Source: Takakia lepidozioides
Lineage: Eukaryota; Plantae; Bryophyta
DNA length: 64,000 nt
Direction of reading: 5' to 3'
NCBI GenBank assembly: GCA_030704615.1
Contig: CM060731.1
Location: forward strand, 37,138,001 to 37,202,000
Both the position numbers and the translations under genes were made by a program. Below are positions 4,330 through 64,000 of the stretch, piece after piece. The notes below the pieces were generated by a model. The model did no database searches and had not been told where the DNA came from. It saw only the letters and a program-made list of their open reading frames with translations. The stretch's first letter is position 1. Every line of letters begins with the position of its first letter.

Positions 4330-5105
4330 ATGTGTTGAAGAAGGTGCCTTCATTAGCAGTGCCTTGTTCTATCATTGTGCAGCTGCCGCTGCTGTTTCCA
4401 GTTGACCATCTACCCAACGACCTAACTTACAGAATTCAATATGCGTCTCAGGGCATTCGTTGGTGCGTCTGCTACTCTCTGTAATCTAACAGGTATTCAC
4501 CTTTTTGCCTCGATTGCACCTGACTATAGACCTCTATGCAGCACCGCCAGGCTCCTTCCTGACACCTCTGCCTCACATCATCCTCCTCACCTTTGCGGCA
4601 TCGTCCCACCTGCCAGCTGCAGCATAGACGTTGGATAGAAGCACATACGTTGCCGTATCCTGCGGATCCCACTCAAGAAGGTATTTTGCTGCACGTTCTG
4701 CCACCTCCAGATTCCCATGAATTCTGCAAGCACCAAGCAAAGTCCCCCAGACTGTAGCAGCTGGTTCGCTTGGCATTTTCTTGATGAAGTCCTCTGCCTC
4801 ATCCACATGCCCTGCACGGCCTAGAAGGTCCACCATGCAGCCAAAATACTTTGAGCTTGACTCATAGAATCAAAGTAATGACTGCCTTCATCTACTAGTC
4901 CCACATACACCCAACTCAGCTTATCACACAGTTCCTATGCTCAATTGCGTCTGCTACTCCCTGTAATCTAACAGGCATTCACCTTTTTGCCTCGATTGCA
5001 CCTGACTATAGACCTCTATGCAGCACCGACCAGGTTCCCTCCTGACACCTCTGTCCCACATCCTCCTCCTCACCTTTGCAGATTCGTCCCACCTGCCAGC
5101 TGCCA
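4330..5105 (-). pseudogene. Duplicated PPR fragments (last S motif + E domain at 4573-4836; partial copy 4946-5105; copy of the PPR N-terminus near 4340-4415)
   Basis: ORF MVDLLGRAGHVDEAEDFIKKMPSEPAATVWGTLLGACRIHGN...YVLLSNVYAAAGRWDDAAKVR. 4460-4625 is repeated at ~4950-5105. Confidence 0.8.
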
Positions 5106-17852: not shown

Positions 17853-18124
17853 CGTGACTTGACAAGGCAACAAACCAAGACTGAGTGAGGAGGGACGAGG
17901 AGCTGCCCTCAAGCAGCTGGACTCGCTCGCAGCTCAGCGAATGCTCCCAAGCGACTGCTCATCTGCTCTTATTGCGGTCTCCCGCCGAGTGCATTATCAG
18001 CTCTTCAAAGCCATCTCGCCCACTCAGCAGTACTGCGAGCTTCAAATCTAGACAACCAGCTTCCCCAATAAAATCAATGTCTTGGGTACTCCTCCCGCAA
18101 GTCATTCCATTCGGCACTAATCAC

Positions 18125-33293: not shown

Positions 33294-34677
33294 GTGCCCA
33301 ACACTTCAATGCAGTGTATTGGGTTTTGTAAATTTCATAACTTGGGTTTTGAAGCCAACTTGCCAACCTCCCCCTAGGTCCAAATTTTGCACCGCATATG
33401 TTTCTTTGTTGATTTTTGACTCATCGCCTATTTTCAAGCTCCATAAGTAGTATGACTCTATGCTCAAAATATTTCTACATAGAAATCTGAAGTAGATGCC
33501 GTTGAGGCTAAATCAAAATTGACTAAAAGGACAATGAATAGAATCAAGTAGATCATTCGTGGAATTGCACAGAAGAAGTGTAGGTTGCCTCGGATGCCAC
33601 GGCTGTTTGGGATCATCACATTATTTGCAACAACCACTTGGCCATCGAGTTTGGCAATCAACCGAGTAGAAATAGGTCCTTGGAGTCGAACCCAGTAGGA
33701 ACCCAATGAGGTTTGTGGATGGGAGCATTGTATCATGTAGGGCGAACGAGCTTGAACTGTTGGAAAGAGGTTAAGAATTCGAACTTGAATTGAGGATCTT
33801 TTGTTAATTTGTTACTGTTTTCCATTGTTCAACACGACACATACAGCTCGGTTGAAAAACACATATTTGTAGTGTCATTTCTCGGTTAAGGACACCCATT
33901 CAGCAGACTCCTGGCCACTGAGGTGGTGACAGAGGGTTTCCTTGTGACATAGCTCATGGCCAAGCTGCTGCACCCTAGAGCCCCTAGGGAGTTCATGTGT
34001 GAATTGATTATTCTTAAGGAAAATCATAACCGTCTAAATTTGAAGAATTTTGTAGAATAGATAACCAAAAAAATTATCCTTATACATAACCATGGAGTGT
34101 GTCCGTCCCAAAAATATTGAAGTAACCTTAACCGGCGGATATGTAAAATTCTTATAACCTGCCGACACTGGTTCAAACCCAAAATCTGTGGCATATGATC
34201 CACTACTTCAGAGTACTAGATTCATTGAGTACCAAACCGTCCGAGGTTTGTCACAAATGAATAGAAGATGTTAACGAGAAAAAGGTCCTTCAAATTCATC
34301 TCTTCGTGTGTTAGACCTCCTCTTTTGGACATTGCTTCATAGTTTCAAGGGTGAAAACATGCCTACTTTCACTAAACGAAGGTGGAAAAGGGACGTGAGC
34401 GAGTCCATGAAAGCCACGCAATGTTCACAGGTTTGTTGCATTACAGTGCTTTTGCCCAAGCTGTTCAAACCAGTGTTGGGCGGTTAATTGGACTGACCCT
34501 GGTTAACCGGCGGGTCAGGTTCCGGTTATTAAGAACCTAACCAGAACCGGAACCAGTTGGGAGAACCGGAACCAGTTGGGAGACCCGGAACCGGAACTGG
34601 GCCCCAGATTTTGGCTTTGATGGAACCGGAACCGGCGGTTCCTAGTGGGGTCAGGAACCGCCACTAACCGTACATAC

Positions 34678-35166: not shown

Positions 35167-35479
35167 GTACATACTAAGCATTGGATCCTCCTTTACTCAG
35201 GTTGGCAAGCCACTTATATCCTCAACCTTGGGTCGAGCTTATCAACATGGAGGCTATTATTCAGTTCTCATTTAGATTAAAGGATCTAATTATGGGAAAA
35301 ACACTCAAACACCCACAAAGTACAGCTATGTCACGATCTTCTGATCCCAATACAGATACAAATGAACTATCACCACCTATGTATCTTTTTCAAGTCGTCT
35401 ATTCCAATCTCATTTCCAAATCTCTCCTATTCCACTCTTCTAATGACGCAGGATATCCATAAAATGGCCTATATCATAC

Positions 35480-35935
35480 CTCTTTCAAGCCTGGATTTGG
35501 TGTGGAATGGAGCATAGTGAGGATTTAGTTGCAAAACCTGGCAAGCTCTACTGGACCTCTGCCAGAGATTATTTGCCTTATTTTGCCATCAGACCAGCCA
35601 CTTGCAATGTATGATTTTTTATTTTATTTTGGCCAAGTGGGCTTGGTCTCGGACACTCAAAGTGTATGTGTGTCCATATCTTGAAGCTGTAACATGGCAG
35701 GCCTTTCTTCCATGCCAAAATGCCTTACATGATGCATGTCTTGGGGCAATGGTGAAGAATGAAGTTGCAGTCTGTCTTGTCTTGCCCAAGTGGGTCACTT
35801 GGTTGCATGTTTGGAATGTGATAAACTGCAGGCTGGTCCATCAAGATGCTTGTGTATACATGTCTTGAATCTGTAGTATGGCAGGTTGTTCTTACCTACC
35901 CAAGAGGCCGTGCATGATACATGTCTTGGGAGACT
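35480..35935 (-). repeat. Inverted copy of the ~190-bp repeat family and its flank (matches ~61330-61805)
   Basis: catgatgcatgtcttgggg, caggctggtccatcaagatgcttgtgta etc. are reverse complements of the units at 47940-48385 and 61119-61540. Confidence 0.8.
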
Positions 35936-36249
35936 TACAAATGGCAAAGAATGAGATGTCGCTCCCAGGTGTTCAAACTTTGGAATTGTCCTAACTACTT
36001 CACTTCGTTTAGCCGAACAACCCAATTCTCTAACTCCCCTCTGCCTTCCAATTTATCAGTTGTTCTATGCATCATGTAGATATCCCGTTCATTTATCATA
36101 TTACCCCGATTTTACATCCAATTCGATGATTTTGCGATTTTACTCAATCAAAGTCCAAAATAGCCCCATAATTCTACATTCTAAGTTCGATCTTCTCAAC
36201 TTTAGCGTCTAAACCTCCTTCTAACCAGACAAAATAACTATTATTCTAC

Positions 36250-38209: not shown

Positions 38210-40350
38210 TCGTAAGATGGCTAACCAGGGTAGCTGAAAGTCCCAATCTCCCAGATGTCTTTTCTACAAACCATACCTGCGCAAACCTCTCTTAACCGTC
38301 TGCACAACTATCTTTGTCAAGCCATCGGCATTAAGATGGTTCCGAGAAGTGGTGCGGTGGTCTATCAAGGCTTTGTCGCACACGCCTGAAACTCCCCCAG
38401 GAACTCTCTCCCTTGGTCCATGAGTACTTTAGTCGCTAGAACACCGAATCGGCTAAGCACACGATCGAAGAATGCATATGCAACCCCCTCGGGCCTCACT
38501 AACCTTGTCAAAGAATGGAATCAACTTGATCCACTTGGAGAAGTGCTCCACCATCACCAACACGTATTTATGGTGGCGCATCGTCAATGACAACGGTCCT
38601 ACAAAGTCAAGATTCCATCGGTAGCTTAATCTTATGATGGGCAAAGGATGCAGCTTTGATGTAGGGGTGTTGAATGAAGAGCCCACCCTGTCATATACCA
38701 TGCACCTAGCTACAAATTGTTGCACCTCTGTATGCATACCACGCTACCAATACTGACATTGCAGTAGACTAGGAATGCGTCATATCCCAAAATGCCCCAA
38801 CTCCTCATGGGCATGCCGTACCAACCGTGCACACTGTATTGGGCGAGGCACAATCCTCACTCGACCATCTTCCCACACTCAGAGCAGATGTGTCATCATC
38901 CATTTGAACCGTTTGGCTCATCGTAGGATCCAATCTATCTCATTGACAGTCATTGTGGCTGTCGTATCTCAAGTGTGGAGATAGCTAGTCCAACACAATT
39001 GAATCCTTATGTGTATCTCTGGAGCCCACTGGCTCATCGTTGGTCTTAGGGTCCTCACACATTCTATCTACAGGATGAATGCAGGGTTGACTGGACCAAA
39101 ATGGACGTTACTGGCACAGTTTTAGATGACTGCAATTGATGGTGTCATCAATTGAATTTGAATTAACTCATTAAAACCAGAAAATATATATGTCATTGGA
39201 TTCCTAGCTTCAATACGCACCCATAGCAACTCTCCAATCATGAATCCGATAAGAAATGACTCTGCTATGGACTTTTGAACACCGTCATTGTGGACTGTTA
39301 CCGCAGTGAATGGAATTACAATGGACTCAAGTTCTCATATGCACCATTGGTGAATTCCATTGAAATTTGGACTTAAGGTGGCCATTTTGGTCCACATCAT
39401 AGGTTTGGATTTGAAGTGGCAAAATCATTTGTCATTTGACTCATATGAACTAATATATGTCAAAAAATTAGGCGTTTTTTGAAAAGTCCATAGCTCATCA
39501 TGTTTTTTGGATTTTGGGTGTCATTTGTTTTCTAGAAGTATAAAACCTATAATCTTCAATGGCTAGGTGGCATATTGAAAGTTTTTGTAAACTCTAATTT
39601 TTAGTTTTTCATAAATTTCCTAAATAATAGACTAAAATGTTTAATGAATTATATCTTTAATATTTGGGGTAGGACTCTTTACTAAATATGTTTAGTATAC
39701 CATTATCTATCACTAAAATGTTTTTTGGATAGTATCATCAATGTTTTTGTTTTTGGTCATGGACTTTCATGGAGCAAGATCTGCTGCCTTTGGTCCACTC
39801 AACCCTGCAACTGCCCCACAATCATCCATGTTATTGGTCCAACCTAGCCTTCCACTGACAAGATGCACAAAAATGCAGATGCGTGCCATTCCCGCACCAT
39901 CTCCTCGTCCATCTCACCGTGCCACTGAGTTCCAGGGTCATCTGTTAACTGATGCATGGATTGCGACTCAACCCATCCGCATCCCAATTGACTACACCGG
40001 ATCGATGTACCACTTGAAAGTCCTACTCATGGAATATAAGTGTCTATTATGCAAGCTTCTTCGTAAGCTTGTTTGACTCCATCTTGAATCATAACAATGG
40101 TGAAGAGGTTGTCGTACAGATAGCACCTGAAGTGTACCACGGCCCACACTGCACCTAAGAACTCTCTCTCTCGTATGAGCTATATTTAGCATCTGCAAAG
40201 TTGTTCGAGCGTTGTTTGAGCCACTACAAACTTTCTCCCCTCATCATCCACTTGCATGAGCACCGCTCCAAGTCCCAACATGCTTCAATTCGTATACAGC
40301 CGAAAGGGATGTCCCCTGATAGGTCGTCTCAAGATGGGCGTCTAGATCTG
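38210..40350 (-). mobile_element. Degenerate older copy of the pol (RNase H-integrase) region of the 49782-61118 gypsy family, interrupted by a TIR element
   Basis: MHTEVQQFVARCMVYDRV...LDFVGPL..YVLVMVEHFSKW is colinear with 51400-52230; 39860-40345 is colinear with 52270-52770. Confidence 0.85.
39084..39805. mobile_element. Non-autonomous TIR element
   Basis: TIRs GGGTTGACTGGACCAAA / TTTGGTCCACTCAACCC (16/17 match) flanked by TGCA on both sides. A related end lies at ~44035-44335. Confidence 0.7.
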
Positions 40351-43278: not shown

Positions 43279-43924
43279 CACGGCATTCTTCATTGCTGCT
43301 CTTTTCTTCTTTATAGCGGCTGTTTGCTCATTATAAATGGTCTCTGCTGGTCGTCTTTAAGATGTAAGAGTTAGAATTGACATTTAAAAAAGTTGACTCA
43401 TGAAAAATCCTAGGTGCATGTAAGAACCGTGAGCAAATAGAAACATACATCCTACCATTGTCACTACCACTTCCTCCACAATTGAGAACACGCTATGGTG
43501 GCATGTTTGTCCTCGCACTTTGAGTGCTTGCAACAATATTGTCGAGGTCAACTACATTTGGATTCTCACGAGACGCATTGTTTTGTAATTCCATGGTACT
43601 CTAGTACGGGAGACAGGGAGCGACGAGAAAAAGATCGAGCTAGGGGTGAACGAACAGATGAACTCGATGGTGAGAATGAGCAGATCACAACAAAGAAACT
43701 CCCTAACATTTCGGATTTCCAGGCGGTAGTCCCTGGAAATCCGACTTCCGCAGGGAAGCTTCACATACGCACCACGTCACATTTCTTTTCATTGTCTGTT
43801 CCTCCCGTGCGGTAGGTGAAGGGTATCAATTTGTGATGGGTGAGGGGTGTCCGTTTGTGATGCATCCACCAATCATCTAATCCTCCTAAAGGTACTAGAG
43901 GCCATAATTTGCTTAAATTCCACG

Positions 43925-44025
43925 CCCAACGGACGTGAGCAGAGTTCGGGCTTTCATGGAGTTGACAAACTACTATCGACGGTTTGTCAAGGGATTTAGT
44001 GTTATTGCAAAGGCTCTAACCAAGG
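43925..44025 (+). mobile_element. Short inverted fragment of the gypsy RT-RNase H connection
   Basis: Encodes DVSRVRAFM.LTNYYRRFVKGFSVIAKALTK, matching 52855-52950. Confidence 0.75.
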
Positions 44026-47645: not shown

Positions 47646-47939
47646 AAAAGAGAGAGGGAGAGGGAAGATACTATGTCATGTCAAGACATGGACAAGACCC
47701 ACAAGGGTCATTGTCAATTAAAGACATAAACAGCCCATAAACAGGGCACCATCTAACACTTCCATTCTTGTCATGACTTCCCAATTGATTTCACCCAATC
47801 ATTCATGATCAAACAGGGTGGGAGGGCGGGGTTTGTTTATGTACAGGTCATGACAACAAGACAAGCATATAAGCAAACATCTTGTGTACTGAAAAATCAG
47901 ATTGCTACAGCCTGTCATACCCTTTCCTGGCACCATAAT

Positions 47940-48385
47940 TACAACAAGACATGCATAAAACAAAACATCTTGGGTATGTGAAACTAGCCTGCAATATTAC
48001 ATATTCAAGACATGCCCTTCCAACAAACATCTTGGGTATGACAAAATAATTTGCAGCCTACCTTATCAGTATTACCCCAAGACATGCATCATGCAAGGCA
48101 TCTTGGGCAAGTAAGAACAGCCTGTCATATTACCGATTCAAGATATGTACACACAAGCATCTTGATGGACCAGCCTGCAGTTTATCAGATTCCAAGCATG
48201 CAACCAAGTAACCCTCTTGGGCATGACAAAGCATATTGCAGCCTCATTCTTTACCATTTGTCATTACCCCAAGACATGCATCATGCAAGGCTCCTCGGGT
48301 AGGTAAGAACAGCCTGCCATACGACAGATTCAAGACATGTATACACAAGCATCTTGATGGACCAGCCTGCAGTTTATTAGATTCA
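47940..48385 (+). repeat. ~185-195-bp tandem repeat array (continues at 49680-49781 and 61119-61540)
   Basis: Recurring unit ccccaagacatgcatcatgcaagg...gtaagaacagcctg...cagattcaag...catgcaaccaagta. Confidence 0.85.
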
Positions 48386-49010
48386 TTTTTCATCCGTGCA
48401 GGATGAGTAATCAACACCACATTTTTCGAAACCCGACGGATGTCATCCGTTAGTTAGGTTTAAACAGTAGGTTATAGGGTAGGGGTTAGGGTTTCACTCC
48501 TTGATTAACCATAATTAAGAGTAATTAATCATCAGTCCAAGGCCATCATAGGTTGTACATTTCATCCGGTTCGGATGAAAAAGTCATTGAGTTCATCAGT
48601 TGGAGAAAGTTCGTCAGTAGGATTGAAAAACAGTAAATAACATCCAAAGCATCGGTTTTACATCATAACATGTAATTCAACATCCCCAAAAGAATTTTTT
48701 TGTGCCTCATCCAATACGGAAAAAAAAACAATAAAAGAGGAATGAACGAATTAGTATCATGGTATTTTTCATCCGGTATGGATGGAAAAAATAGGATGCC
48801 AGTGGCAACCCCTACAGAGGTAATTCCTCATTCTCTGGTGACTCATCCGGTATGGGTGAAAGTCAATAAAAGAAGAATGAAAAAATCATAAACTCAGCTT
48901 AGAGGTAATTTAATGTCCACCCTGGTAGTTCATCCGGTATGGATGAAAAATTGTTATAGGGCGGGTGAAAAAACTGTCACAATCCATCCGGTATAGATGG
49001 AAAAACAGGA
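48384..49010 (+). repeat. Interspersed repeat, near-identical copy at ~62725-63345
   Basis: ttttcatccgtgca.gatgagtaatcaacaccac ... gtcacaatccatccgg is shared over ~620 bp. Confidence 0.9.
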
Positions 49011-49971
49011 AACTAACACTCCCTCTCTCTCTCTCCTCTCTTTTGTGCTCCTCACAAACCCTAGGGTGTCTCTTGACCCAAAATAACTATTGCCTTCTGG
49101 TAGAAAAGTGGATACCTTTGTGACACTAATCGGTGGAGTGAACCCATAACCACTTCCGAGGAGGTATGTGCCCATTACCACTGGGCTTGGTTGTCTCTGA
49201 TGCATGAACAACTACCACATAGGCGATCATATCTCTAAAAAACAACCCCCATCTCAAGAAATACTAATGCTCAACATATGTCTTGTTATATTGTATAGAA
49301 ACCATGTACTCCCAAAATATCTGATGCAGGTAATAATAATATGTGACGTCTCCCGAAAGAAGCGTAAATTATGGTAAAAACCACTGAGGGAAAGAGGGGG
49401 TAGAAAAAGTTAATAAGAGAGAGGTCGAGAGTGGGAAGATATTCATGTCATGTCAAGACATGGACAAGACCCTACTAGTGTCATTGTCAATTAAAGACAT
49501 AAACAACCCATAAACAGGGCACCATCTAACATTTCCATTCTAGTCATGACTTCCCAATTGATTTCACCCAATCATTCATGATAAAACAGGGTGGGAGGGC
49601 GGGGTTTGTTTATGTATAGGTCATGACAACAAGACAAGCATATAAGCAAATATCTTGTGTACTGAAAAATCAGATTGATGGACCATCTTGATGGACTAGC
49701 CTGCAATTTATCAGATTTCAAGCATGCAACCAAGTAATCTTCTTGGGCATGACAAAACATATTGCAACTCACTCTTTGCCATGTCGTGCGCATACATATC
49801 GCTACACAACTACATCGTTGTCCAAAAACCACACAACACATGTGCACACCACACACTAGTATACCACTAGTCTACCACTAGTCCAGCCACTAGTCCAACC
49901 ACTAGGCTACAACTAGTCAGTCACTAGGCTGCCACTACGCTGCCCACTATGGCAGTCACTAGTCCACACAA

Positions 49972-50477
49972 TGATAAAGAAGAAGAATACAAGCACAAGC
50001 TCATGCGAGCTCACAAAGCTGAAGCATAAACTCATGCATATATAACCTCATCACTCAAATACAAGTCAAGCCAAGTGCACCCCACGCCATGGGGAATCCA
50101 CACTACGGCGCCATAGCTAGGCGCGGTGAGGCTCAACTCGAGAAAGATGAGCCTCCCGCGCTTGCCGTGAAGATAACCACTCCAGGGCCTAAATCTGCCT
50201 TGACCCCTGGATTGACACTTGGGCCAATCCCAAATGTCAATATGTAAAAGCTAGCTATTTCCTAGCTAGTTTCACACTAGTGGTAAATAACTTGACAGCT
50301 GTCGTGCGCATACATATCGCTACACAACTACATCGCTGTCCAAAACCACACAACACATGTGCACACCACACACTAGTATATCTACCACTAGTCCCACTAG
50401 TCCAACCACTAGGCTACAACTAGTCAGTCACTAGGCTGCCACTACGCTGCCCACTATGGCAGTCACTAGTCCACACA
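49972..50477 (-). repeat. Complete LTR-like unit Y-GC-X (TG...CA, 506 bp); partial copies Y at 49782-49970 and X at 60792-61118
   Basis: Minus strand begins TGTGTGG just after a purine tract and ends TTATCA. 50300-50477 matches 49782-49970, and 49972-50297 matches 60792-61118 with about 5 differences. Confidence 0.9.
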
Positions 50478-50478
50478 A

Positions 50479-50488
50479 TCGCCCCCCT
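50479..50488 (-). promoter_or_regulatory. Polypurine-tract-like sequence
   Basis: AGGGGGGCGA lies 1 nt upstream of the TG that starts the complete LTR unit. Confidence 0.7.
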
Positions 50489-50744
50489 AGCTGGTGCTTA
50501 GGTCCCTCTAAGTCCAGGTAGCCACAAGATGTGATAGTGACCATAGCCTCACTAAGTCCTCCACCACTATCCCTACTACACTCAAACTCGATAGATCAAG
50601 AGGCCGGGTGCAAGAGTTGCCCCATCGTTAGTCGCCGTCTTGCAACCTGTGAACTTGAGCTTGGGATCTCATGTATTGACTCCTATGAGCTTGGCCTCCC
50701 ATGTCTTGTTAGCTGCCTCCAGTCATGTCCACTGCCACTATCCC

Positions 50745-50885
50745 AAGCAGTGTGGACACAACCAATCTCCGTCAGGAACCTTCTCAAGAGGGTGTCAAGC
50801 ATCCCATATGCCAACCCCTTGAGCATCGATCACACACCAGCATGGTGGCTGCCCCTTGGCAGACCCACAGAGCATGCACCTCAAA
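50745..50885 (-). CDS. PHD finger (C4HC3) at the integrase C-terminus (frameshifted)
   Basis: Reconstructed across small indels: CMLC...AATMLVCDRCSRGWHMGCLTP-LEKVPDGDWLCPHC. Confidence 0.85.
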
Positions 50886-50959
50886 CCTGCAGGTACCACT
50901 GCCAAGTTTTGGGTCAACTCTGCCATCGACATTGGGAAGGTGACATGGCGCACAATTAC

Positions 50960-52042
50960 GCACATGGTCCTTCCAAGTCATGCCATCCCGACCCTCCAAG
51001 ATCAGGACCCCTGAGGGCAACACCTCTCGAACCCTCAGAACACGCCCTGCAGTACATCCAGAGTCGTAGGAGCAGTCTGCTGCAAATAAACATAGTCACC
51101 AGGGCTAAACCTCCGAACCCCAGGACGATATCCTCCACCACGTATAGTGGCATACCTCAACGTATCACGGTGCTGTGCAATGGCAAGGTTCTCAAAAGCC
51201 ATGGGCATGACTTTCTTGAACAACTCTGCACGCTGATCACATGCACGTACCCACACGTCCGGATCGTCAAGGTTAAGGACTTGAGCAGTGTCCCTACGAA
51301 TGGCTGCAGGCAAATCCGGCTCTCGGCCAAAGAGAAGGAAATATGGTGAGAAGGAGGCAAGTGATGCTTGTTTGCTGAACCTGTAGCCCATGGCTAACCA
51401 AGGAACCTGAAGATCCCAATCTCCTAGGTGTCCCTTCTGCAAGCCATACTTGCGCAAACCCCTCTTCACCGTCTGAACAACTCTCTCTGCTAAGCCATCG
51501 GCCTCAGGATGATCCCGAGAAGTGGTGCGGTGGTCTATCAAGGCTTTATCACACAAAGCCTGAAACTCCCCCAAGAACTCTCTCCCTTGGTCCGTGAGTA
51601 CCTCAGCTGGAGCACCAAATCGGCTAAGCACACGATCCAAGAATGCATACGCAGCCCCCTCACTAGCCTTGTCAGGCAATGGAACCAACTCAATCCACTT
51701 GGAGAAGTGCTCCACCATCACCAACACATATCTGTGGTGGCGCATAGTCAGTGGCAACGGTCCTGCGAAGTCAAGACTCCACCTGTAGCCCAATCCCATG
51801 ATAGGTAAAGGATGCAACTGTGGTGTAGGGGCGTTGAATGAAGCACGCACCCTGTCACACACCATGCACCTAGCCACAAACTGTTGCACCTCTGTATGCA
51901 TACCACGCCACCAATACTGCCCCTGCAGTAAACTGTGAGTGCGTCGCACTCCAAAATGCCCCAACTCCTCATGGGCATGCCGCACTAACCGTGCACGCTG
52001 TGTGGGGTGAGGCACAATCCTCACCCGACCATCCTCCCACAC
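50960..52042 (-). CDS. Gypsy integrase (HHCC + DDE core + SH3-like tail)
   Basis: HEELGHFG...CMVC; WSLDFAGPL; VLTDQGREF; HPEADGLAERVVQ; FSPGDYVYL. Confidence 0.95.
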
Positions 52043-52049
52043 TCGAAGT

Positions 52050-53700
52050 AGGTGTATCCCCTCCCTTGAACCTCTTGGCTCGTTGCAGGATCCGATCCCT
52101 CTCCCTGGCAGTCACAATGGCTGCCGTGTCTCCCGTGCGGAGGTAGTCCAACACAGCCGAATCCTCATGTATATCTCTGGCACCACCTAGCTCATCACTA
52201 GCCTCAGGGTCCTCAGACACTCCGTCTACAGTCATCCCTGTTGTAGGTCCAATCTGACCTCCCGATGCCAAGATACACAAAAATGCAGATGCGTGCCATC
52301 CCGGCACCATCTCCTCGTCCGTCTCACCATGCCACCGAGCTCCAGTGTCATCCTGCTGGCTCATGCATGGATTGCGACTCAATCCATCCGCATCCCGATT
52401 GACCAAACCCGGTCGATGCACAACCTGAAAGTCATACTCCTGGAGTATAAGTGCCCACCGTGCAAGCTTCCCCGTAAGCTTGTCTGACTCCATCAACCAC
52501 TTGAGTGGCTGGTGATCCGTGACAAGGGTGAAAAGATTGCCGTATAGATAGCACCTGAAGTGTGCCACGGCCCACACTGCAGCTAAGCACTCTCCCTCAT
52601 ATGAGCTGTACTTAGCCTCTGCAGCGTTGTTCGAGCGGCTAGCGTAAGCCACTACGAACTCTCTTCCCTCATCATCCACCTGTGTGAGCACCGCTCCAAG
52701 CCCCAGCATGCTCCAATCCGTATGCAGCTGAAAGGGACGCCCCCTGATAGGTCGTCTCAAGATAGGCGCCGAGGTCAACCTCGCCTTGAGCTCTTGAAAA
52801 GCTCGTTCCTGCTCATCTTCCCACTGCCACTCCTGGTCCACCTTGGTCAGCTTGGTTAGAGCCTTTGCAATGGTACTAAATCCCTTGACAAACCGTCTAT
52901 AATAGTTTGCCAACCCCATGAAAGCTCGAACTCGGCTCACATCCGTGGGGCCCAATGGCCTCTACCTTAGTCTGCTGTACCCCCAATCCTCCAGGATATA
53001 TCATGTGACCCAGATACTCAATCTGGTTGTGGAAAAACTTGCACTTCCCCGGATGCAACTTCAATCCGTGCGCTCTCAAGCGCTCCAATACCACCTGAAG
53101 GTGTCTCTCATGCTCCTCCATCGTAACACTAAAGATGATGATGTCATCTATGTAGCACCGAGCAAAGTCCACCCCTGCTAGAATCCTATCCATGACTCTC
53201 TGAAACTCTGCAGGAGCATTCTTAAGCCCAAATGGTAAGAACCGCCACTGATATAGGCAATCCTTGCCGTGCTCATTGATCCCCCAGAATGCCGTCTTCT
53301 GCTTGTCCGCCTCCTTGATTGGCAACTGGTGATATCCGGATCGTAAATCCAAAGTGCTAAAGGCCTTAGCATGCCCGATGGCATCAAAGATCTCCTCTGG
53401 TGTTGGCATGGCATACTTATCGGACTTGGTCTGACGATTTACAGGCCGGTAATCACCGCACATACGTCTCTCCGTCCAATTGCCATAGACATCCTTCTTG
53501 GCTGGCATCACTGTGGCTGAAGCATACTCTCCACCAGAGAGCTCCACCAAACCTGCCTCCCAGAGATCTTGAGTCCTCATCTGAATCAAAGACCTCTCCA
53601 TGTCACTGTATCTATAGGGTCTCCGAAAGATTGGCGTGTCAGTGGCCAACTCAATACGGATCTCTTGACCCTTCAGTGCTCCCAAGTCCTTCAAACTGAA
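52050..53700 (-). CDS. Reverse transcriptase and RNase H (frameshift ~52950)
   Basis: RMCGDYR, LDLRSGYHQ, PFGLKNAPAEFQ, YIDDIII, YLGH; FMGLANYYRRF, LHTDWS, YEGECLA, VTDHQPL, ADGLSR. Confidence 0.95.
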
Positions 53701-54129
53701 GGCAAAGCAATTCCTGTAAGCCCTCAGGAACCGCCGTATACGTCGTCTCTCTCCTCCGGTGACAATGGGTCCAATGTCAGGCTCCCAATTGTCCTCCGTA
53801 ACTACAACCTTAAGTCCAGTGGGCTTAGAGGTAGAGGACGCGTCCCGTGGTTGCTATGTTGCAACCTCTTGAGCAGTACTCTCCCTGCCTGCTCAGTCAA
53901 TGACAAGGCCTCATCCTGCCCCATCATCTCATCCTTGAGGACCTCCTCAACCCGAGAAGAATCCCCAACCTCATCCATCACAGCCGCCTTGGCTGCCAAC
54001 TCCCTCTGAACCTCGAGCACCTCCCACGTGTGCCATGGATGCATGCACCCCGTGGTCCTCACATGCTCGCCCCCTCACTGCCTGTACCGTCTCGGTAGGC
54101 AGAGAGACCATTGAGGGAAGTGTACTCCG

Positions 54130-55110
54130 CACTCTGCGTTGCTCAGCCAGAGCCAAGCTGATAATCCAGGTCAAGCAATTGAGATCCATTGCTTGCCCCA
54201 ACACTTGACGACGTGATGCCTCAGAAAGAGACGACACCGCCGTGGTACCAGTGGTAAAACCCATTGCCCGCTCACGCTCGTCAGCATTAGGCTCCACTAA
54301 CTGCTGCAACTGAGCATCCCACAGGAGGCCAGGTCCACTATCCCGGAAAGCATGCGATCCTGGGAAGCTGAGCAGTGTAGGTAATGCTGCTCGTGGTTGA
54401 CCCACCTTGTTGACCACTGCCAAAGGCGAACGGTCATCGTGTCTCACACGCTGAGACTGCCTCCCTGTGTCCAGAATGTTATCCACTGTGAGATGTGCTG
54501 GCCGCTGCACCCCATCAAATGCACGCTTGAGCAGTGCGGGTGGCATCAAGTTAGTCCACCATAGCCGTGGACGATGAGCCCGTGACCCCACTGTAGCTGC
54601 ATCTAGCAACACTGCTGACCCAAGCCACGACCGGACTTGATGCACACTGGCCATCACCCTGGCCCGAGAATCGCCCATCAGTGGCACATTCTCCAAGATG
54701 TATGCTGGAGATACAGCTTGATGAAGCTGCAAGTGGCGCAAAACCCGCACCATCTCCCAAAACAGACCCGACCTCGAGTCTCGCAATCCATTGCCATGCC
54801 CGGCTGATGAATGCCCTTGGCAGGGCCAACCTGCCACTACCAGATCAATGGAGCCAACCCGCTCCAAATCCTGCGCCCCCAGCAACGAAATGTCTGCTGG
54901 CAAGGCCTGCTGATATCCACGAATTGCAGACACCGACAACAACTCAGGGTACCGCTGCACCAAACTGAGCAACATGGCGAAGTGAAACGCGTCGTGCAGT
55001 CTCATCCCTCTCCACATACAGGTAACGCCGAACTCGTACACCTGCCTGTAACACAGCAGCCAATCCGGTGCTGATCCCGCCAAACAAGTCCAGAAGACAA
55101 ATGCCTTCAT
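54130..55110 (-). CDS. C5 cytosine DNA methyltransferase, DNMT3-like catalytic domain, embedded in pol (one frameshift ~54975)
   Basis: Motif I LLDLFGGISTG, II YLYVE, IV DLVVAGWPCQGHS (catalytic PC), VI LENV, VIII RPRLWWTN, IX ERERAMGF, X RRQVLGQAMD, in canonical unpermuted order. Confidence 0.92.
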
Positions 55111-55383
55111 CCGGATACTGCCACACAATAGGTGTGGTGTCCAATGGAGACAATTGAGGTGGTCCTGGTGCAATCCCCACACTCTCCTCCTCTCTCTGAC
55201 GGTACAAAAGCCTCCACCCAGGCTTGTTGCACCCGTCGATCAGCATCCCGCTGCAAATCCTTGCTCGTGCCCCACAATGGAGTCTGAGCAACCATGGTAG
55301 GCAACTCCGCCATACCATACATGTCATCCTGCTCTCCCGGAGGTGGTACATCCTCTGAATGAGCATTGCCCTCAAGCAACTCT

Positions 55384-55830
55384 CTAGGCCAACTCACTGC
55401 CTGTGAATGCTGCTAGTGTCGGCATCTTGCCTCGCTGGGCAACCGCAACTCCTCCTATGAACGTCACAGGGAGCTGCACACGCCGGCCCTCCCCTGACTG
55501 CCATGCAGGCCTATAGGAAGCTGACTCCTCCCAAAAATCCAGGGTGAAGCCCATGGGGTACAACACTGCCCCACCAACCAGGACATCGTATGAGACTGCG
55601 TCTGTCACAATGGCCTTGGCTCGCATCACTGAGCCATCTGTAGGGTGATCCGGCCGTAGTCTGATAGCCAACTCACGCCGTGTCATGCCCCGAGCCTGCT
55701 CCGATCCTCCCAGAGACGTCTGTATCTGGAAAGGACAAGGCTCCATATCCGCCTCCGTGAGGCCCAAGCCTGCAATAGCAGCTCTGCCCAGCATCAATGG
55801 CTGAGCTCCCGAGTCCAACAAGACCGCAGT
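55384..55830 (-). CDS. Retroviral-type aspartic protease
   Basis: LDSGA active site and the C-terminal YDVLVG..VL motif. Confidence 0.85.
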   Translation of the reverse strand, partial: TAVLLDSGAQPLMLGRAAIAGLGLTEADMEPCPFQIQTSLGGSEQARGMTRRELAIRLRPDHPTDGSVMRAKAIVTDAVSYDVLVGGAVLYPMGFTLDFWEESASYRPAWQSGEGRRVQLPVTFIGGVAVAQRGKMPTLAAFTGSELA

Positions 55831-56339
55831 GGCCGGTACCTCTTGCCTGCCGGTCCACTCAAACAGAAAATGCCATCCTGGTTGTCTAACATGACAACTC
55901 CAGGTGTCACCATGGCGCGCTCAATGGCTGGCCTAGCTGGCAGCTCCATCAACCTGGCAGCTGCAGCTTGCCATGGCGCCGCCGTGGCAGTCTTGACCCT
56001 CAAATCCGAGGATCCCTCCGGCACTACACCTCCCACTATCTCCGCAGAAGATGAAGTAACCTCCCCACTCTCACAGAGTGTAGCTGCCAGCCTGAACACC
56101 TCAGCTGGTCTTACCCCCGGCGTCGCAATCATGGTAGCCGAGAACAATGGAGCCTGGCACACAGATGTGGCCGCTCCTAGCAGCACACTAGCTGCCGTAG
56201 CCTTGGCAACACTAGGTAGTGGTGCTACCCGTGTAGCTCTCCCCAATGGCATAGTAACCTCCGCCTCGGTAACAGTCGGGCGAGAACTAGGTGCCATGGA
56301 TGGCGTCGACACTGTCTCCGCCAATGTGAATGACTGAGG

Positions 56340-57972
56340 AAGCCTAGCCTGACGGCTTGCCTCCCCACGCTGGATCCAACTCCACCTCTGCACCTCGTGG
56401 CTCAGGAACTCGTGCTGCTCCTCGAGTCACGGCTGCAGCAGACTCCACCTGCACTAGTGGTAGTGCTGCTCCACATGAATCCCATGCCTCCCATATCTCC
56501 TCCCTCAGGAGCAGGAGGTGGACCATCCGGCCTTAGAGTACCACCTGAGCTGTAGCCATGGCAGCGAGCCTCTGCTCTAGCTGCTGAAGCCGGTTGGCCA
56601 TGCCTTGGTCAACACCCTGACCTCCGCGTCCTTGGCCACGTTTGAGCTTGCCCTTGGCCTCGTGGCTGGCCACCTCGTCCTCTCTGGGCTGCTCCACCTC
56701 GCCCCCGGCCACCATTGTTCCCTTGGAACTGGCCTGGGCGCAACTCAGGATGCAAACCATAACACTGGGCCTCTCCATGCCCGTGCTTGCCACAATGCCC
56801 ACACTGCAACTGTGCAGGCTGTGCATGTGCCGGCCCTTTGCCTCCCTCTGGGCAATCCTTCTTGACATGGGGTCCTCCACATGTCCAGCACACCACATCC
56901 GCCCGTTGTTGGCCAGCAAATGAAGGGAGAGACCCCTGCATCTGAGGTCCTCTCTGCCCTTCCCTGAGCTTCACCTGAGCCCCCTTGTTGCCTTGAGCAC
57001 GTTGAGGTAGTGGTTGGCTAGGAGCACCACTACCCCGTGGTGTCTCCTTAGCAAATCCCACCATGACCACTCGTTCCTCCACCATGTGAGCTCTATCCGC
57101 TCTGCCAGCAAAAACACATTTGCTAAGGTGGGTTGGGCCGCTTGTAGGAGAGTTGCATCCCGCACCCTTCTCCTCAGCTCCTTGTCCAATATCCCATACC
57201 AGAATTGGACTGCCTGAGCTTCCGTAACCCCTTGGGTTACATTTAAGCGCCTCATGCGAGTGAAAGCCTCCCTCAAGCTCTCGGTCGGCTTCCGTTGGAA
57301 CTCTTGCAAGCTCCGCAACTTCTCTGTCCTCACCCCTTGGTAGTTCCCTCTCAACTCTTCGAAGAACTCCACACAGGGTTGAAGGCAGGCACGGGTGCTA
57401 GTGCTGGTGCGGTAGTGGCTTGGGTGGACGTCGTAGCTACTGTACCACCAGTCCCACTGAGCTGCAAGCTGCCGGTGCAGCGGCAGGTGTAGCCACTGCC
57501 CTCGTGGCTCTAGTGCCCCTAGTGATGGAGACATAGTCGGGTGACCAGTACATCCTCCACTCCTCGATCTCAACCTCATGCCCCCGCCTGAACTCATGGT
57601 AATCATCCATAGGCGGCCCCTCAAGGTGCTGAAACAGCCCTTCCATGCCATGAAAGGCGTAAATAGTTGTGGATTGCGCATTTGCTGCAAATCACACCAA
57701 CTATCAAACTCTTGGATAAAATCATCCAACTCGATGGTGCCCACCGCCCCAGAGTACCTTCGTGGCCCCTTGGTAGCTCCATACATCTCCTCCATTGTGT
57801 CCCACAACAATGGCAAAGAAACAACTTGCACCGCCGGTATGAGTCCTCCTGATTCACAATCCGAATCAGAACCTTCCGTAGAAGACACAGGAGGTGAAGG
57901 TGGCCTAAACCGCACCTCGTCTCGTGTACCCACTAGTATCGCTAGTGCTCGAACCGGCACTGTCCCCAGCAA
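56340..57972 (-). CDS. gag (frameshifted) with two CCHC zinc knuckles
   Basis: FQRKPTESLREAFTR (capsid-like); CWTCGGPHVKKDC and CGHCGKHGHGEAQC; RGG-rich tract. Confidence 0.85.
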
Positions 57973-58689
57973 CTAGTGGCACCTCCGTGTTGACACTCAA
58001 CCGGTCATGAACATGTCCCTAACCCCCTCTCCACAAGGTAACCGGGTAGAGAACCTGTTGCGGCTTATGGTTTGGAATACTAAGTTCCTAACATAGCCTA
58101 CACCTGTACCTGCATCCACCGCAAGCTCCTATGGTTGGCTGGTCATCACCTCCAACCTCACCACAGGAGAAACAATGATGGTCTGGCTGGTCATCACCCC
58201 AGCCTCACCATCGACAGCATGCTCTAGGACTGGCCGGTGATCAAATCCGGACCAATCACCTAAAAAACAAGCGCCCACACAAAACTAGCATGGCGCACAG
58301 TCAAGCATGCAGGTATGGAGGGGATCCAAACACAAAATCAGAACGACAACTCCCCCACACCAAAAACAACTCCACGGTGTTGCTCCTGCAAGGACACCCC
58401 AGCCCAAACCCGGACTGACTCTTGCCTCCACCTACGGAAAGGTCTTGGCCTAATGAGAGGGTGGAAACTACGAGGAAGAGAAGCTAAAGCAATGCCTAAC
58501 CCCAGCATGCCTCATCCCAACACTCTTCTCCTCTCTTCCCTCACTTGCATGACCATGGGAAATATCATGAAGATACTCCTCAAACCGCCCTCCACGAGCT
58601 TCAAAATTCGGCCTTCCAGACCACATGCCAGTCCTTAGGCAGTCCACCAGTGCCTCCACGAGTCAGCACAGGCCGTCCACAGGTCAACA

Positions 58690-59345
58690 CGGGCCACCAC
58701 AGACCAGCACAGGCCCACACAGCTCACTGGTCACAGCCGTCACAGTCCCACAGGCCACTGGGCCCCTCACACAGCCTTCACAGCCTGTCACAGCCCGTCA
58801 CAGCCTCATTCACGGCCTGTCACAGCCCTCACTCACAAATTTTCACAGCCTTCAGTCACAGCCCCTCACAGCCCCTCACAGGCCCCACGGGCACGGCCTG
58901 TCACAGCCCGCCCGTCACAGTAAACAGCCCCAAAGGCCACAAGGGCCTGTCACAGCCCGTCACAGCCTCAACAGCCCCTCACACAGCCCGGACACAGGGG
59001 CCCACGGCCTGTCACAGCACAGCCCGTCACAGCCCCAAAGGCCTCAGGCACAGCCCACAGCCTCACAGCCCCAAAGGCCATGGGCACGGCCTGTCACAGC
59101 CCCTTCACAGCCGCCACAGCCGTTGGTCACAGGATGTCACAGCCTCACAGCCTTCAGGCACACAGCCCCTCACAGCCCCTACATGCCTTCACAGCCCCAC
59201 AGCCCTGCCTCACAGGGGCCTGTCACAGCCCCTCTCACAGCCCCAAAGGCACACAGCCCACATCACAGCCCACAGGCCTTTCACATGCCTGTCACAGACA
59301 GCCCGTTGGGCTCACAGTGGGCAGGCCCCAGCCCGTCACAGTGAC
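58690..59345. repeat. Degenerate TCACAGCC(C) minisatellite in the retroelement 5' leader
   Basis: Dozens of (t/g)cacagccc units over ~650 bp. Confidence 0.9.
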
Positions 59346-60779
59346 ATACAGGGCCGCTCTGGCAGTTTAGCCATTTCTCCAAGGGGTTTAGCCACGCCAA
59401 GCTAGGGTTTGTGTCTCTTGGACTCTAGGCTTCTTTCCACCGAGCTATGGTGGCTGTGAGGAAATCAGCAAGGTATCCTTGCTCTTTCGGCTCCCACACA
59501 CCACCATAGTAGCCCTAAGCCATGAGGTGGTTGCCACAAACCAAGCCTTCTTTCTCACTTAGCCTCCCCAAACACGCCACTAAACTCAATGGCAAACAAC
59601 CAAGCCCTGCTGGTTCCCAGCCCTGTGAGCACTCATTCAAGCACTCTCATTGCCATAGCATCTGTCTTAGAGCCTATTCCAGCCCCTACACCTGTTGCTT
59701 CAAGAGTTGCGCTCCCTTCAAGCTTGAAGTTGAAACCCCAACTCACATAGGCCCTACAAGTGCTTTCTTTCACTCCAAGTGGAAACCAGCCTAGACCTTC
59801 CGTTCTAGCTCTCTAAGCTTGAAAACAAGAGCCTCAATGGGCTGAAGGCATGCTCCACACATGCCCCACTCTCACCATAAAGAGCTCAGTTGGCAAACAC
59901 CCCTGAAAACAGCCCAGGCGCCCCATTAACAGGCTGGAAATTCAACCTCAGCAGGCACAATTAGCATGCTACATTGCCCTCACATAAGGGAAGTCAGCCC
60001 TTCCCTCTTCCTTGCTTGCCCTCCAAGCTTGAAGATGGAAGCTTCAATGAGCTGAATACATGCTCCACACATGCAACCTCTTCACACAAGAGATATCAGC
60101 CCCCTATCTTGGCTCCTTGGCTCCTTGATGCTCTCTAAGACAAGACTAAGCACTCCATAGCCTTATTGCCAAGCTCCTGAAACCCAAGGCTTACATTTCC
60201 AGCCACAAGACACTTCTCTTGTGGTGCAAGAACTCTTCTTCCAAGCTCTGAAACCCTAGGTGCAACATTCCATGGCCTTGCCGCACCTCTTAGCTCCTAT
60301 TCCAGCCCTGCTCTTGCCATGACAAGAGCCCTCTCAATGCTGAAGCTCGAGATTGAAACCCAATCTCACCATACTCCACAAAGTGCACTGATTTGCCCCA
60401 AGCAAAATCAGCCCTTTCGCTTGGTCTTGCAATCCTTCACACAATGAAAGCTCGCATTCCTAAGTCCAGTTCTCAGCTTTGCCACCAAAGCCACTATAAC
60501 CTGCTCTTGACTGGTCCTCTTCCCAATCGTGCTTGCTCATGCATGTACACAATCTGGAACCATCAAGGTGCTCTGGAATTACCTGCAGCATGGGCTTTCA
60601 TCTCTGAAGCTGAAGATCGAATGCCAAGGTCTACCACCTCGTAAACCCACATCGCCTCCGCTTCTAACAACTAAGAGCTCCACGGTGCTCCTTGCATAAC
60701 AACTTGGTTTCTCTCATTCTCAAGCAAAAACCACAAGTGCTACAACTAACTCGTATCTGGCACTCACAGATACGAGCTG

Positions 60780-60791
60780 ATCTTTCTCGAG
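60780..60791 (-). promoter_or_regulatory. Putative self-priming PBS
   Basis: CTCGAGAAAGAT directly follows the 5' repeat X and is the exact complement of ATCTTTCTCGAG inside X (60968-60957). No TGG tRNA-type PBS is present. Confidence 0.7.
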
Positions 60792-61118
60792 TAATAAAGA
60801 AGAAGAATACAAGCACAAGCTCATGCGAGCTCACAAAGCTGAAGCATAAACTCATGCATATATAACCTCATCACTCAAATACAAGTCAAGCCAAGTGCCA
60901 CCCACGCCATGGGGAATCCACACTACGGCGCCATAGCTAGGCGCGGTGAGGCTCAACTCGAGAAAGATGAGCCTCCAGCGCTTGCCGTGAAGATAACCAC
61001 TCCAGGGCCTAAATCTGCCTTGACCCCTGGATTGACACTTGGGCCAATCCCAAATGTCAATATGTAAAAGATAGCTATTTCCTAGCTAGTTTCACACTAG
61101 TGGTAAAATAACTTGACA

Positions 61119-61805
61119 GCCATTTGTAAGTACCCCAAGACATGCATCATGCAAGGCCCCTTGGGTAGGTAAGAACAGCCTGCCATACTACAGATTCATG
61201 ATATGTTCATACAAGTACCTTGAAGGACCAACCTGCAATTAATCAGATTTCAAGCATGCAACCAAGTAAACTTCTTGGGCATGACAAAACATATTGCAGC
61301 TTCACTCTTTGCCATTTGTAAGTACCCCAAGACATGCATCATGCAAGGCCCATTGGGTAGGTAAGAACAGCCTGCCATACGACAGATTCAAGACATGTAT
61401 ACACAAGCATCTGATGGACCAGCCTGCAGTTTATTAGATTCCAAACATGCAACCAAATGACCCTCTTGGGCATGATAAGACAGACTGCAACTTCATTCTA
61501 CACCATGTATAATTGCCCCAAGACATGCATCATGTAAGGCATTTTGGCATGGAAGAAGGGTCTACCATATTACAGATTCAAGATATGGACACACAAAAAC
61601 TTTGAGTGCCCGAGACCAAGCCCACTTGGTCAAAAAAATAATAAATCATACATTGCAGGTGCCTGGTCTGATGGCAAAATCAGGCAAATAATCTCTGGCA
61701 GAGGTCCAGTAGAGCTTACCAACACTGTTTTCCAAGAGGTTTATGCCAAGTTTTGCAAATAAACCTCAATATGCTCCATTCCACATCAAATCTAGGCCTG
61801 AAAGA
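61119..61805 (+). repeat. ~190-bp repeat array and flank (target of the gypsy insertion)
   Basis: Units are continuous with 49680-49781 once the element is removed. Confidence 0.85.
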
Positions 61806-62724: not shown

Positions 62725-64000
62725 GATTTTTCATCCGTGCAAGATGAGTAATCAACACCACATGTTTCGAAACCCGACGGATGTCATCCGTTAGCTAGGT
62801 TTAAACAGTAGGTTATAGGGTAGGGGATACGGTTTCACTCCTTAATTAACCATAATTAAGAGTAATTAATCATCAGTCCAAGGCCATCATAGGCTGTACA
62901 TTTCATCCGGTTCAGATGAAAAAGTCATTGAGTTCATCCGTTGGAGAAAGTTCGTCAATAGAATGGAAAAACAGTAAATAACATCCAAAGCATCGGTTTT
63001 ACATCCTAACAGGTAATTCAACATCCCCAAAAGAATTTTTTTGTGCCTCATCCAGTACGGAAAAAAAGCTATAAAAGAGGAATGAACGAATTAGTATCAT
63101 GGTATTTTTCATCCGGTATGGATGGAAAAATAGGATGCCAGTGGCAACCCCTACAGAGGTAATTCCTCATTCTCTGGTGACTCATCCGGTATGGGTGAAA
63201 GTCAATAAAAGAAGAATGAAAAAATCATAAACTCAGCTTAGAGGTAATTTAATGTCCACCCTGGTAATTCATCCGGTATGGATGAAAAAATGTTATAGGG
63301 CGGGTGAAAAAATTGTCACAATCCATCCGGAAAAATAGGAAATTAACACTGATAAAACCGGCCAATTCCAAGGAGGGAGGGAGACAGAGGGAGAGGCAAC
63401 AAAGGAAAAAAAAAAATGGGGGGGGTGTGACCAGTTGCTTAGTCACACACCCCCCCCCCCCCCCCCCCATTTTTTTATTTTATTTTTTGGTTTCCCTCTC
63501 TCTCCCTCTCTCTCCCTCTCTCTCCCTCTGGAAACTGGGCTTATGGAATTGTTGTCCCGACTTCCATCTTTGAGGAAATTGAAAAAAATTGAAAAATTGG
63601 GTTGCAGGGAATTTTGGATGTTTTTCATCCAAAATACTAATTTTTCCCTAGTGAAATATTTCTTCACTAAATACCTGTGAGTTGCAAAACTCCCGTCAGT
63701 TTCTACTTTTTCAATCCAACCTGGATGAAAAAAGGACTTCATCTGACAGGACCTAAATACGGGACAAGACAAGTATAAACCCCTGATGTTTTTCATCTAA
63801 CCTAGATGAAATACGGACTACATCCGTTGAGTACACGATGTCTTTCATCTTCCGCGAATGAGAAACGGACAACGTCCGTCAGGCTTACAGGCTGACGGAT
63901 GTTTTTCATCCTGAGAAGGATGAATGATGGGCCAGACAAGGGAAAACCCTGCGCAACCCTAATGTCTTTCTTTTTGCGCTGCGAGAGAGCGCGCGCGCTT
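62725..64000. repeat. Composite CATCC-motif repeat (copies at 48384-49010 and 44470-45245)
   Basis: Direct sequence identity with the listed copies. Confidence 0.8.

Follow-up and report, generated by a model that had tools for sequence, protein, structure and literature searches.

The window, that is the whole stretch of 64,000 nucleotides analysed, contains a Ty3/gypsy element of 11.3 kb on the minus strand (49782-61118), flanked by a 4-bp target duplication and carrying a domain with the motifs of a C5 cytosine methyltransferase (DNMT). Its features, in the order in which the element is read, are as follows.

61119..61122, no strand: right copy of the target-site duplication GCCA, the target being a unit of a ~190-bp satellite
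60792..61118, minus strand: repeat A1, the 5' terminal repeat, which starts TGTC
60956..60968, minus strand: predicted self-primer, complementary to the primer-binding site and the likely 5' end of the RNA
60780..60792, minus strand: primer-binding site (PBS) right after A1, whose last base it includes
57800..60779, minus strand: long 5' leader that contains a tandem array of short units at ~58600-59350
56500..57795, minus strand: gag with zinc knuckles, frameshifted (Retrotrans_gag weak, E=0.006; 51% to Marchantia P0124)
55450..55880, minus strand: aspartic-protease-like (PR) domain (LLDSG), frameshifted near 55823
54118..55120, minus strand: DNMT3-like C5 cytosine methyltransferase domain, broken in frame near 54962, with its motifs I-X in the usual order
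53848..53856, minus strand: conserved in-frame stop TAG CAA CCA ending the Gag-PR-DNMT open reading frame (ORF), in a CAR-YYA-type context
52950..53700, minus strand: reverse transcriptase (RT; RVT_1, E=8e-34)
52350..52940, minus strand: RNase H (RH; E=2e-36)
51100..52010, minus strand: integrase (IN), zinc finger and DDE core (E=9e-17 and 5e-14)
50750..50960, minus strand: PHD finger downstream of integrase, split near 50907 (many relatives have PF00628)
50480..50490, minus strand: polypurine tract (PPT) immediately before B1, conserved in related loci
50300..50479, minus strand: repeat B1, which ends GACA
50294..50303, no strand: palindromic B1-A2 junction GACA-GC-TGTC, the proposed integrase attachment site
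49972..50297, minus strand: repeat A2
49782..49971, minus strand: repeat B2, the 3' terminus, which ends GACA
49778..49781, no strand: left copy of the target-site duplication GCCA

The element starts with TGTC at 61118 and ends with GACA at 49782. The 5' boundary is supported by contigs from other sites, which part from the element at 61118, and an empty satellite unit near 61290-61345 has one GCCA copy. The domain order gag-PR-RT-RH-IN with a DDE integrase is that of Ty3/gypsy elements, as are TG...CA termini with a 4-5 bp target duplication. The ordinary LTR layout, with identical terminal LTRs, a PBS after the first and a PPT before the second, was not found, the termini A and B being different in sequence; nor was there a match to a tyrosine recombinase among the 10 element ORFs scanned, which hold a DDE integrase instead. 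The protease-like DSG stretch (~55450-55880) is a frameshifted piece without a Pfam match, and PF13650, representing the protease, is present in the relatives P0139, P0155 and P0211. The PHD finger, part of the original prediction, is indeed present after the integrase, its split fragment scoring 21.9 bits against a Pfam cut-off of 24. Within the 5' leader the tandem array at 58600-59350 creates spurious long plus-strand ORFs.

The surroundings are rich in repeats. The ~190-bp satellite occupies 35479-35954, 47936-48384, 49684-49781 and 61119-61605, one of its units being the insertion target of the element, and it is also interrupted by a 636-bp repeat (48385-49020, found again at 62726-63350 with 95% identity). 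A second, decayed member of the family lies at 38217-40348 (81% DNA identity), where RH and IN are split by an insertion and no trace of DNMT, RT or gag was found, and a short inverted RH fragment of the family lies at 43924-44024. A Ty1/copia element is present in pieces on the plus strand (28679-33294) with LTRs at 28679-28925 and 33030-33294 that are 88% identical. Host genes are represented by a PPR gene on the minus strand (1190-5100) in several frames, with a repeat spacing of ~290-300 bp, which we take to be that of PLS-class triplets, and by a GH95-type glycosidase (12240-13438) and an FAE1/KCS gene (16096-17933), each spread over two frames. The frames of these three genes suggest pseudogenes or uncorrected assembly indels.

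The C5 methyltransferase motifs named in the original prediction, including PC, ENV and RxR, were all found where they had been claimed on the minus strand: motif I at 55096-55064, II at 55024-55004, IV (WPCQG) at 54828-54814, VI (ENV) at 54696-54682, VIII (RAHRPR) at 54582-54550, IX at 54279-54256 and X at 54210-54184. The set that defines the enzyme class (I, IV with PC, VI with ENV, VIII with RxR, and X, together with PF00145) is therein complete, the Pfam DNA_methylase profile passing its cut-off at E=5e-13. The DNMT lies between the protease-like stretch and RT on the same strand, as had been proposed, and the Marchantia protein P0124, which is a single ORF, aligns collinearly with the window from gag through DNMT, so the region is also without introns. 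The claim of intact catalytic motifs held, all of them being present. The reading frame is broken: a break near 54962 puts motifs I-II in one frame and IV-X in another, and the element as a whole has at least 10 frame changes relative to P0124 and P0211. The window copy, as assembled, cannot make the enzyme. At most of these breaks, that at 54962 among them, contigs of the organism itself read differently, so the breaks are not features of the family. A1 and A2 differ by 5 substitutions and 1 indel over 327 bp, and because the A repeats are near-identical and the host genes of the window are broken too, some of the frame breaks may be assembly errors. CG depletion was considered as a clue to the sequence context of the enzyme and rejected, the element (0.47) being no different from the rest of the window (0.50).

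Homologs numbered 258, 88 and 99 in three protein searches. Those named with 56-75% identity to the window piece belong to Marchantia, Calypogeia, Riccia and Sphagnum, and more distant homologs come from Klebsormidium nitens (P0230, 46%), Closterium and Chromochloris. Two gene models of Marchantia polymorpha, Mp_4g09160 and Mp_8g17980, are unbroken Gag-PR-DNMT genes. Of 159 confirmed metagenome loci related to the element 80 were covered, most with the same neighbouring domains; they are called moss-like here because one of them, L004, shares 85% identity with a Sphagnum protein. Contigs from three DNA runs of the host species span all 30 bins of the element, DNMT included, and one such run gave 113,759 contig records on the element, a figure that indicates a large family and is not a copy number. 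A DNMT confined to a single copy, the outcome that the original prediction had named as fatal to it, is thus not what was found, the homologs and loci showing its presence throughout the family. The many frame breaks of this copy and the broken look of other genes in the window could be taken to mean that the DNMT was captured by this copy alone, came in with a nested insertion or is a chimera of the assembly. A one-off capture is refuted by the homologs, and with the related loci, mostly with the same neighbours, and the coverage of the DNMT in three DNA runs also against it, this reading has practically no chance of being right.

A DNMT tree was built from 81 of 132 near-full domains and five loci, by a quick search of element-borne sequences with no outgroup and with the group in which the DNMT lies between RH and IN thinned to every fifth row. 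The 19 rows among which the window was placed (SH-aLRT 96) include Marchantia, Calypogeia and two moss-like loci; K. nitens lies far from them. These neighbours, together with the PPR and KCS genes, make a non-seed land plant the likely host; a search with the PPR fragment gave no finer placement than Streptophyta. In 76 of the 148 long homologs (P0182-P0270) the DNMT stands before the integrase, following RNase H where that is present, and not after the protease. These proteins include P0245 of the chlorophyte Chromochloris, and the 14 that were sampled form one tree group (SH-aLRT 86). To judge from these sequences, the domain has moved within the polyprotein and the family extends beyond the streptophytes; no description of a DNMT relocated to before the integrase was found in the literature examined.

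The type of the enzyme was examined in L004, an unbroken relative 68% identical to the window. A phmmer search of solved sequences gave 32 matches, the top 29 being DNMT3A/B/C (E 9e-10 to 3e-6), followed by 4onj at E=0.0015 (named 'DNA methyltransferase', and presumably plant DRM), a tRNA C38 methyltransferase and M.HaeIII. A structure model of L004 had a mean pLDDT of 83 and a pTM of 0.85, and in a fold search with it all 34 of the matches listed were DNMT3 chains (best E=5e-18, ~21% identity). The domain is unpermuted, with motif I before IV-X, and has no chromodomain insert; the circular permutation of the DRM type (VI-X before I-V) was looked for in the motif order and not found. By sequence ranking, modelled fold and motif order alike the domain is DNMT3-like and neither DRM- nor CMT-like, in line with what had been predicted. 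It shares fold and motif order with host DNMT3 (human DNMT3A/B/C, and the moss DNMT3 described in PMC10952607) but is only ~21% identical, lies within a retrotransposon ORF, and PWWP and ADD domains were not seen with it.

Conservation of the active site is high. The catalytic Cys is retained in 145/151 aligned homologs, the E and N of ENV in 173/185 and 178/185 respectively, and the two arginines of motif VIII in 170/200 and 183/200. Between the window and the loci pN/pS was 0.26 for DNMT (38 loci), 0.22 for RT (29), 0.17 for RH (28), 0.21 for IN (12) and 0.39 for PR (31), all values being upper bounds since pS is saturated, as is Jukes-Cantor dS. Among the decaying loci themselves the median dN/dS of the DNMT was 0.53, with ~3 premature stops per DNMT. 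These ratios indicate that the DNMT is under purifying selection like RT and IN; neutral evolution, which the original prediction had listed with a dN/dS check as a further ground for abandoning it, is not the pattern observed.

A stop codon at 53856-53854 divides DNMT from RT, with TAG CAA CCA at 53856-53848. The motif TAG/TAA followed by CAA C(C/T) occurs in 44 of the 49 related loci that hold both domains, the other five comprising one with GAG and four with no match (three of these a deletion or distant copies). The spacer around it is scarcely alignable between window and loci, whereas the stop and its 3' context do align, and in 34/49 loci the distance from DNMT to RT is a multiple of three, i.e. 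one frame. No variants at >=10% were listed at 53847-53858 in four sequencing runs, though neighbouring positions vary. The long homologs of the clade likewise run gag-knuckle-protease-DNMT and then stop; 34 proteins with a near-full DNMT match terminate 8-180 residues past the DNMT, 29 of them at 50-180 and without RT, and P0137 is a spliced model that continues into RH and IN. In K. nitens, Closterium and several other relatives a single predicted ORF spans DNMT, a spacer of full length and RT, so the stop is a feature of a subgroup (47 rows, SH-aLRT 95).

The sequence CAR YYA after UAG is the readthrough signal of TMV, which functions in plant cells (PMC2754532). The window fits this context exactly, while the related loci, with CAA CCC, agree at 5/6 positions. 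On the evidence of the sequences the DNMT is a product of the Gag ORF (ORF1) and not of the RT ORF, which does not support the single gag-PR-DNMT-RT-RH-IN-PHD frame or the status as a pol product that had been proposed for it. RT-RH-IN-PHD is then likely a readthrough product and DNMT likely made one-to-one with Gag, a level of expression that follows from its place at the end of the Gag-protease ORF before the conserved stop. Splicing around the stop, or reinitiation after it, would also give RT-RH-IN-PHD and would leave the DNMT an ORF1 product. In the related loci an in-frame ATG stands two codons past the stop and could serve reinitiation, but the window is without it and its first in-frame ATG after the stop lies only inside the RT region. 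Splicing finds some encouragement in four Marchantia gene models, which link DNMT and RT via spacers of 31-68 residues against ~118-139 codons of DNA and whose shortening looks like predicted splicing, although the models disagree on which part of the spacer is kept. The conservation of stop, CAA and frame despite the divergence of the spacer also weighs against splicing and reinitiation, which are given a rather low probability, and readthrough is retained as the preferred route.

Priming of reverse transcription appears to rely on the element's own RNA. The 13 bases of the PBS at the end of A1 pair at 13/13 positions with A positions 151-163, and 0/2000 shuffles reached even 12. The same A position pairs best with a different PBS in six of 13 loci (11-12.5 of 13; L071 12/13), five positions having changed on both sides relative to the window, i.e. 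in a compensatory manner, whereas in the other seven the pairing has decayed or lies elsewhere. In the loci the predicted self-primer lies ~30 nt past a TATA-like motif. In the moss-like loci L003-L080 the self-primer can also pair without mismatch with the bases immediately preceding it, forming a short hairpin close behind the TATA-like motif. The pattern of pairing matches that described for the self-priming elements Tf1 and Tj1 (PMC4600332), and taken together points to self-priming on the element's own 5' RNA. A PBS complementary to the own 5' RNA is likewise reported for Tf1, Tj1 and the plant Tcn1 clade, and Tj1 also requires a stop codon within its polyprotein gene (PMC4600332, PMC6317226). 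As described there these elements have ordinary LTR pairs and no DNMT, unlike the split repeats and DNMT found here, and the stop of Tj1 follows gag, whereas that of the window element follows PR and DNMT and a PHD is present after IN.

The terminal repeats are arranged as A1 - PBS - body - PPT - B1 - GC - A2 - B2, and the B1-A2 junction consists of both termini of the element joined by 2 bp. The B repeat was found in element orientation in 19 loci, of which seven (six insertions) read B-NN-A, ten (nine insertions) end at B1 and two could not be placed; a B upstream of the 5' A repeat was seen at none of the 17 5' ends in the loci. A 4-bp duplication beside TGTC and GACA termini was present in each of the five insertions for which both ends were visible, two of them with one mutated base. 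Of the terminal parts, similarity between window and loci is detectable only in the PPT and in the final 40 bases of B. The A2-B2 junction is precise in the window and in L009, L013, L055 and L058, mutated in one locus, and has ~19 extra bases in L049 (L049:10837-10857). Short A...B copies had been considered as proof of insertion of a 1-LTR circle, but L034, of the short form, and L050, of the full form, share their 3' flank, so the short form can arise by recombination and provides no test of the integration route; this argument was dropped. A symmetric 2-LTR circle with two equal sites is disfavoured, as it predicts A-B-A...B, which was absent from all 17 5' ends.

In LTR elements the left end of the cDNA is determined by the PPT and the right end by the PBS, and by the textbook rule these ends, as reverse transcription makes them, are what integrase joins. 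In this element the PPT stands ahead of B and the PBS behind A, so that the repeat defined by reverse transcription would be B-gc-A; the TGTC and GACA ends would therefore lie inside the LTR so defined, and B2 would have to be added by joining of the right end to the left. The arrangement suggests that the element inserts via a site inside its own repeat and not by the usual DNA ends. A different route is offered by the tyrosine-recombinase elements PAT and Ngaro, in which the RNA would run into B2, B1-A2 would template a circle junction, and the integrase would open the circle there. The same repeat layout is described for such elements (PMC5890265, legend to Fig. 4c; PMC7192593), the B1-A2 junction contains nothing but the two termini and 2 bp between them, and cleavage of palindromic circle junctions is reported for retroviral integrases (PMC1905944, PMC1180852, PMC4372172). 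The conserved PPT before B1 and the self-priming PBS after A1, however, argue for ordinary LTR-type priming, and the imprecise A2-B2 junction of L049 would be expected if that junction is remade in each cycle. The PAT/Ngaro-like route is accordingly held to be unlikely, and insertion via an internal site, after LTR-type reverse transcription, is preferred.

Retrotransposon-borne DNMTs were already known from algae and dinoflagellates, as the original prediction noted, in the form of KnitGypsy-Dnmt3 and SymbioDIRS-Dnmt3 (PMC5890265). KnitGypsy-Dnmt3 of Klebsormidium nitens is described as a gypsy element with a Dnmt3 domain under purifying selection and with DIRS-like repeats (PMC5890265). It shares with the window element the gypsy domain set, an intronless and unpermuted Dnmt3-like domain, split repeats of the form A...B-A-B and purifying selection. 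In the protein KFL_009030040 (P0230) of K. nitens the order is PR-DNMT-RT-RH-IN, with the DNMT 46% identical, in the same position between PR and RT and matched at a profile E=7e-81. The two differ in that DNMT and RT are described as lying in one ORF in KnitGypsy-Dnmt3, through a 136-residue spacer in P0230, whereas a single DNMT-RT/RNase H ORF was not found in the window family, which has the conserved stop; further, the host is an alga in the one case and land plants in the other. For KnitGypsy-Dnmt3 no account of priming, target duplication or the integration route was found in the literature searched. By its sequence, then, the window element is a land-plant variant of KnitGypsy-Dnmt3 with a different layout. 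The Klebsormidium domain gave no methylation in yeast, where DNMT3B also failed, for which reason the authors draw no conclusion from the test (PMC5890265). SymbioDIRS-Dnmt3 is also a retrotransposon with a Dnmt3 domain and split repeats, for which de novo CG methylation was shown in yeast, but it is a tyrosine-recombinase element of dinoflagellates and an independent capture according to that paper (PMC5890265). EpiLTR and DAM-LTR (bioRxiv 10.64898/2026.05.21.726589) are likewise LTR retrotransposons with DNA methyltransferases and a chromatin reader; there, however, the DNMT is sister to DNMT4 and is accompanied by DAM and a chromodomain, and the preprint treats the streptophyte Gypsy-DNMT3 as a separate, known capture, citing KnitGypsy-Dnmt3. 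The idea that Selgy elements carry a PHD finds no support in PMC6317226, whose main text has 0 occurrences of either 'methyltransferase' or 'PHD'. No description of the land-plant copies, the stop, the self-priming or the internal ends was found in the literature searched, including PMC6317226, PMC9516144 and PMC10952607; the supplements of PMC5890265 and of the preprint may list land-plant copies. What the present element would add to KnitGypsy-Dnmt3 is a Gag-PR-DNMT ORF ended by a stop, a putative self-priming PBS, and inserted ends that appear to lie inside the LTR defined by reverse transcription.

These observations can be assembled into a candidate life cycle. The RNA would start inside repeat A and prime itself on the PBS in the manner of Tf1, which is considered very probable, as is the step by which ribosomes would sometimes read through TAG-CAA-CC to give RT-RH-IN-PHD. 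Reverse transcription would yield DNA with the repeat B-gc-A, whose right end would be joined to, or extended onto, the left. The integrase would then use the internal palindrome GACA-GC-TGTC and drop the 2-bp spacer, giving A...B-A-B with a 4-bp duplication; that the ends are internal in this way is thought probable, with somewhat less assurance than the two preceding steps. The DNMT might enter the particle in Gag-PR-DNMT, be released by the protease and, ahead of insertion, mark the cDNA, probably in a CG or CHH context; this step, proposed from the position of the DNMT and by analogy with SymbioDIRS-Dnmt3 and its CG methylation in yeast, is regarded as an even chance. PHD fingers in general read histone H3, and by that analogy the PHD may steer insertion. 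The overall reading, to which a little more than even weight is given, is that the window holds a frameshifted copy of the KnitGypsy-Dnmt3 kind from a high-copy family whose Gag-level DNMT would be packaged and would methylate cytosines of the new cDNA.

Two other roles for the enzyme were weighed. An active DNMT might instead act on chromatin, with or without guidance from the PHD, methylating the insertion site or copies already integrated, and so damp copy number or set the local chromatin state. Expression at the level of Gag would supply far more enzyme than one cDNA requires, the moss DNMT of host type makes CHH marks on chromatin (PMC10952607), and self-limitation is raised as a possibility in PMC5890265. 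Yet the DNMT is tied to Gag or pol in every layout seen, even between RH and IN, which fits delivery in the particle or integration complex, and a role on chromatin is judged improbable. Still less credence is given to retention of the domain for nucleic-acid binding, structure or RNA methylation instead of DNA methylation. The inactivity of the Klebsormidium domain in yeast would be consistent with such a role, but the DIRS-borne Dnmt3 domains were active (both PMC5890265), and the SAM-binding and catalytic motifs are conserved in homologs down to ~35% identity. Methylation of the new cDNA by packaged enzyme remains the preferred reading.

A broader proposal can be made more tentatively, at rather less than even weight. 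There would be an old gypsy lineage of green plants, abundant in non-seed land plants, with an active DNMT3-like enzyme made 1:1 with Gag above a leaky stop, priming by its own RNA, and integration at a palindrome inside the LTR such that live copies come only from end-joined products; the packaged enzyme would pre-mark the cDNA, and in algal relatives the domain would have moved to between RNase H and integrase.

Among retrotransposons that carry an enzyme of the silencing class, the sole gypsy example so far was algal and gave no activity in yeast. Marchantia polymorpha is a genetic model, in which activity, sequence context and the marking of cDNA become directly testable. Element-borne DNMT genes could be mistaken for host DNMT3 genes when these are counted. 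If the inserted ends do lie inside the LTR, a retrotransposon with a DDE integrase would depart from the textbook rule of end joining, and software that finds LTRs would be likely to misplace the bounds of such copies.
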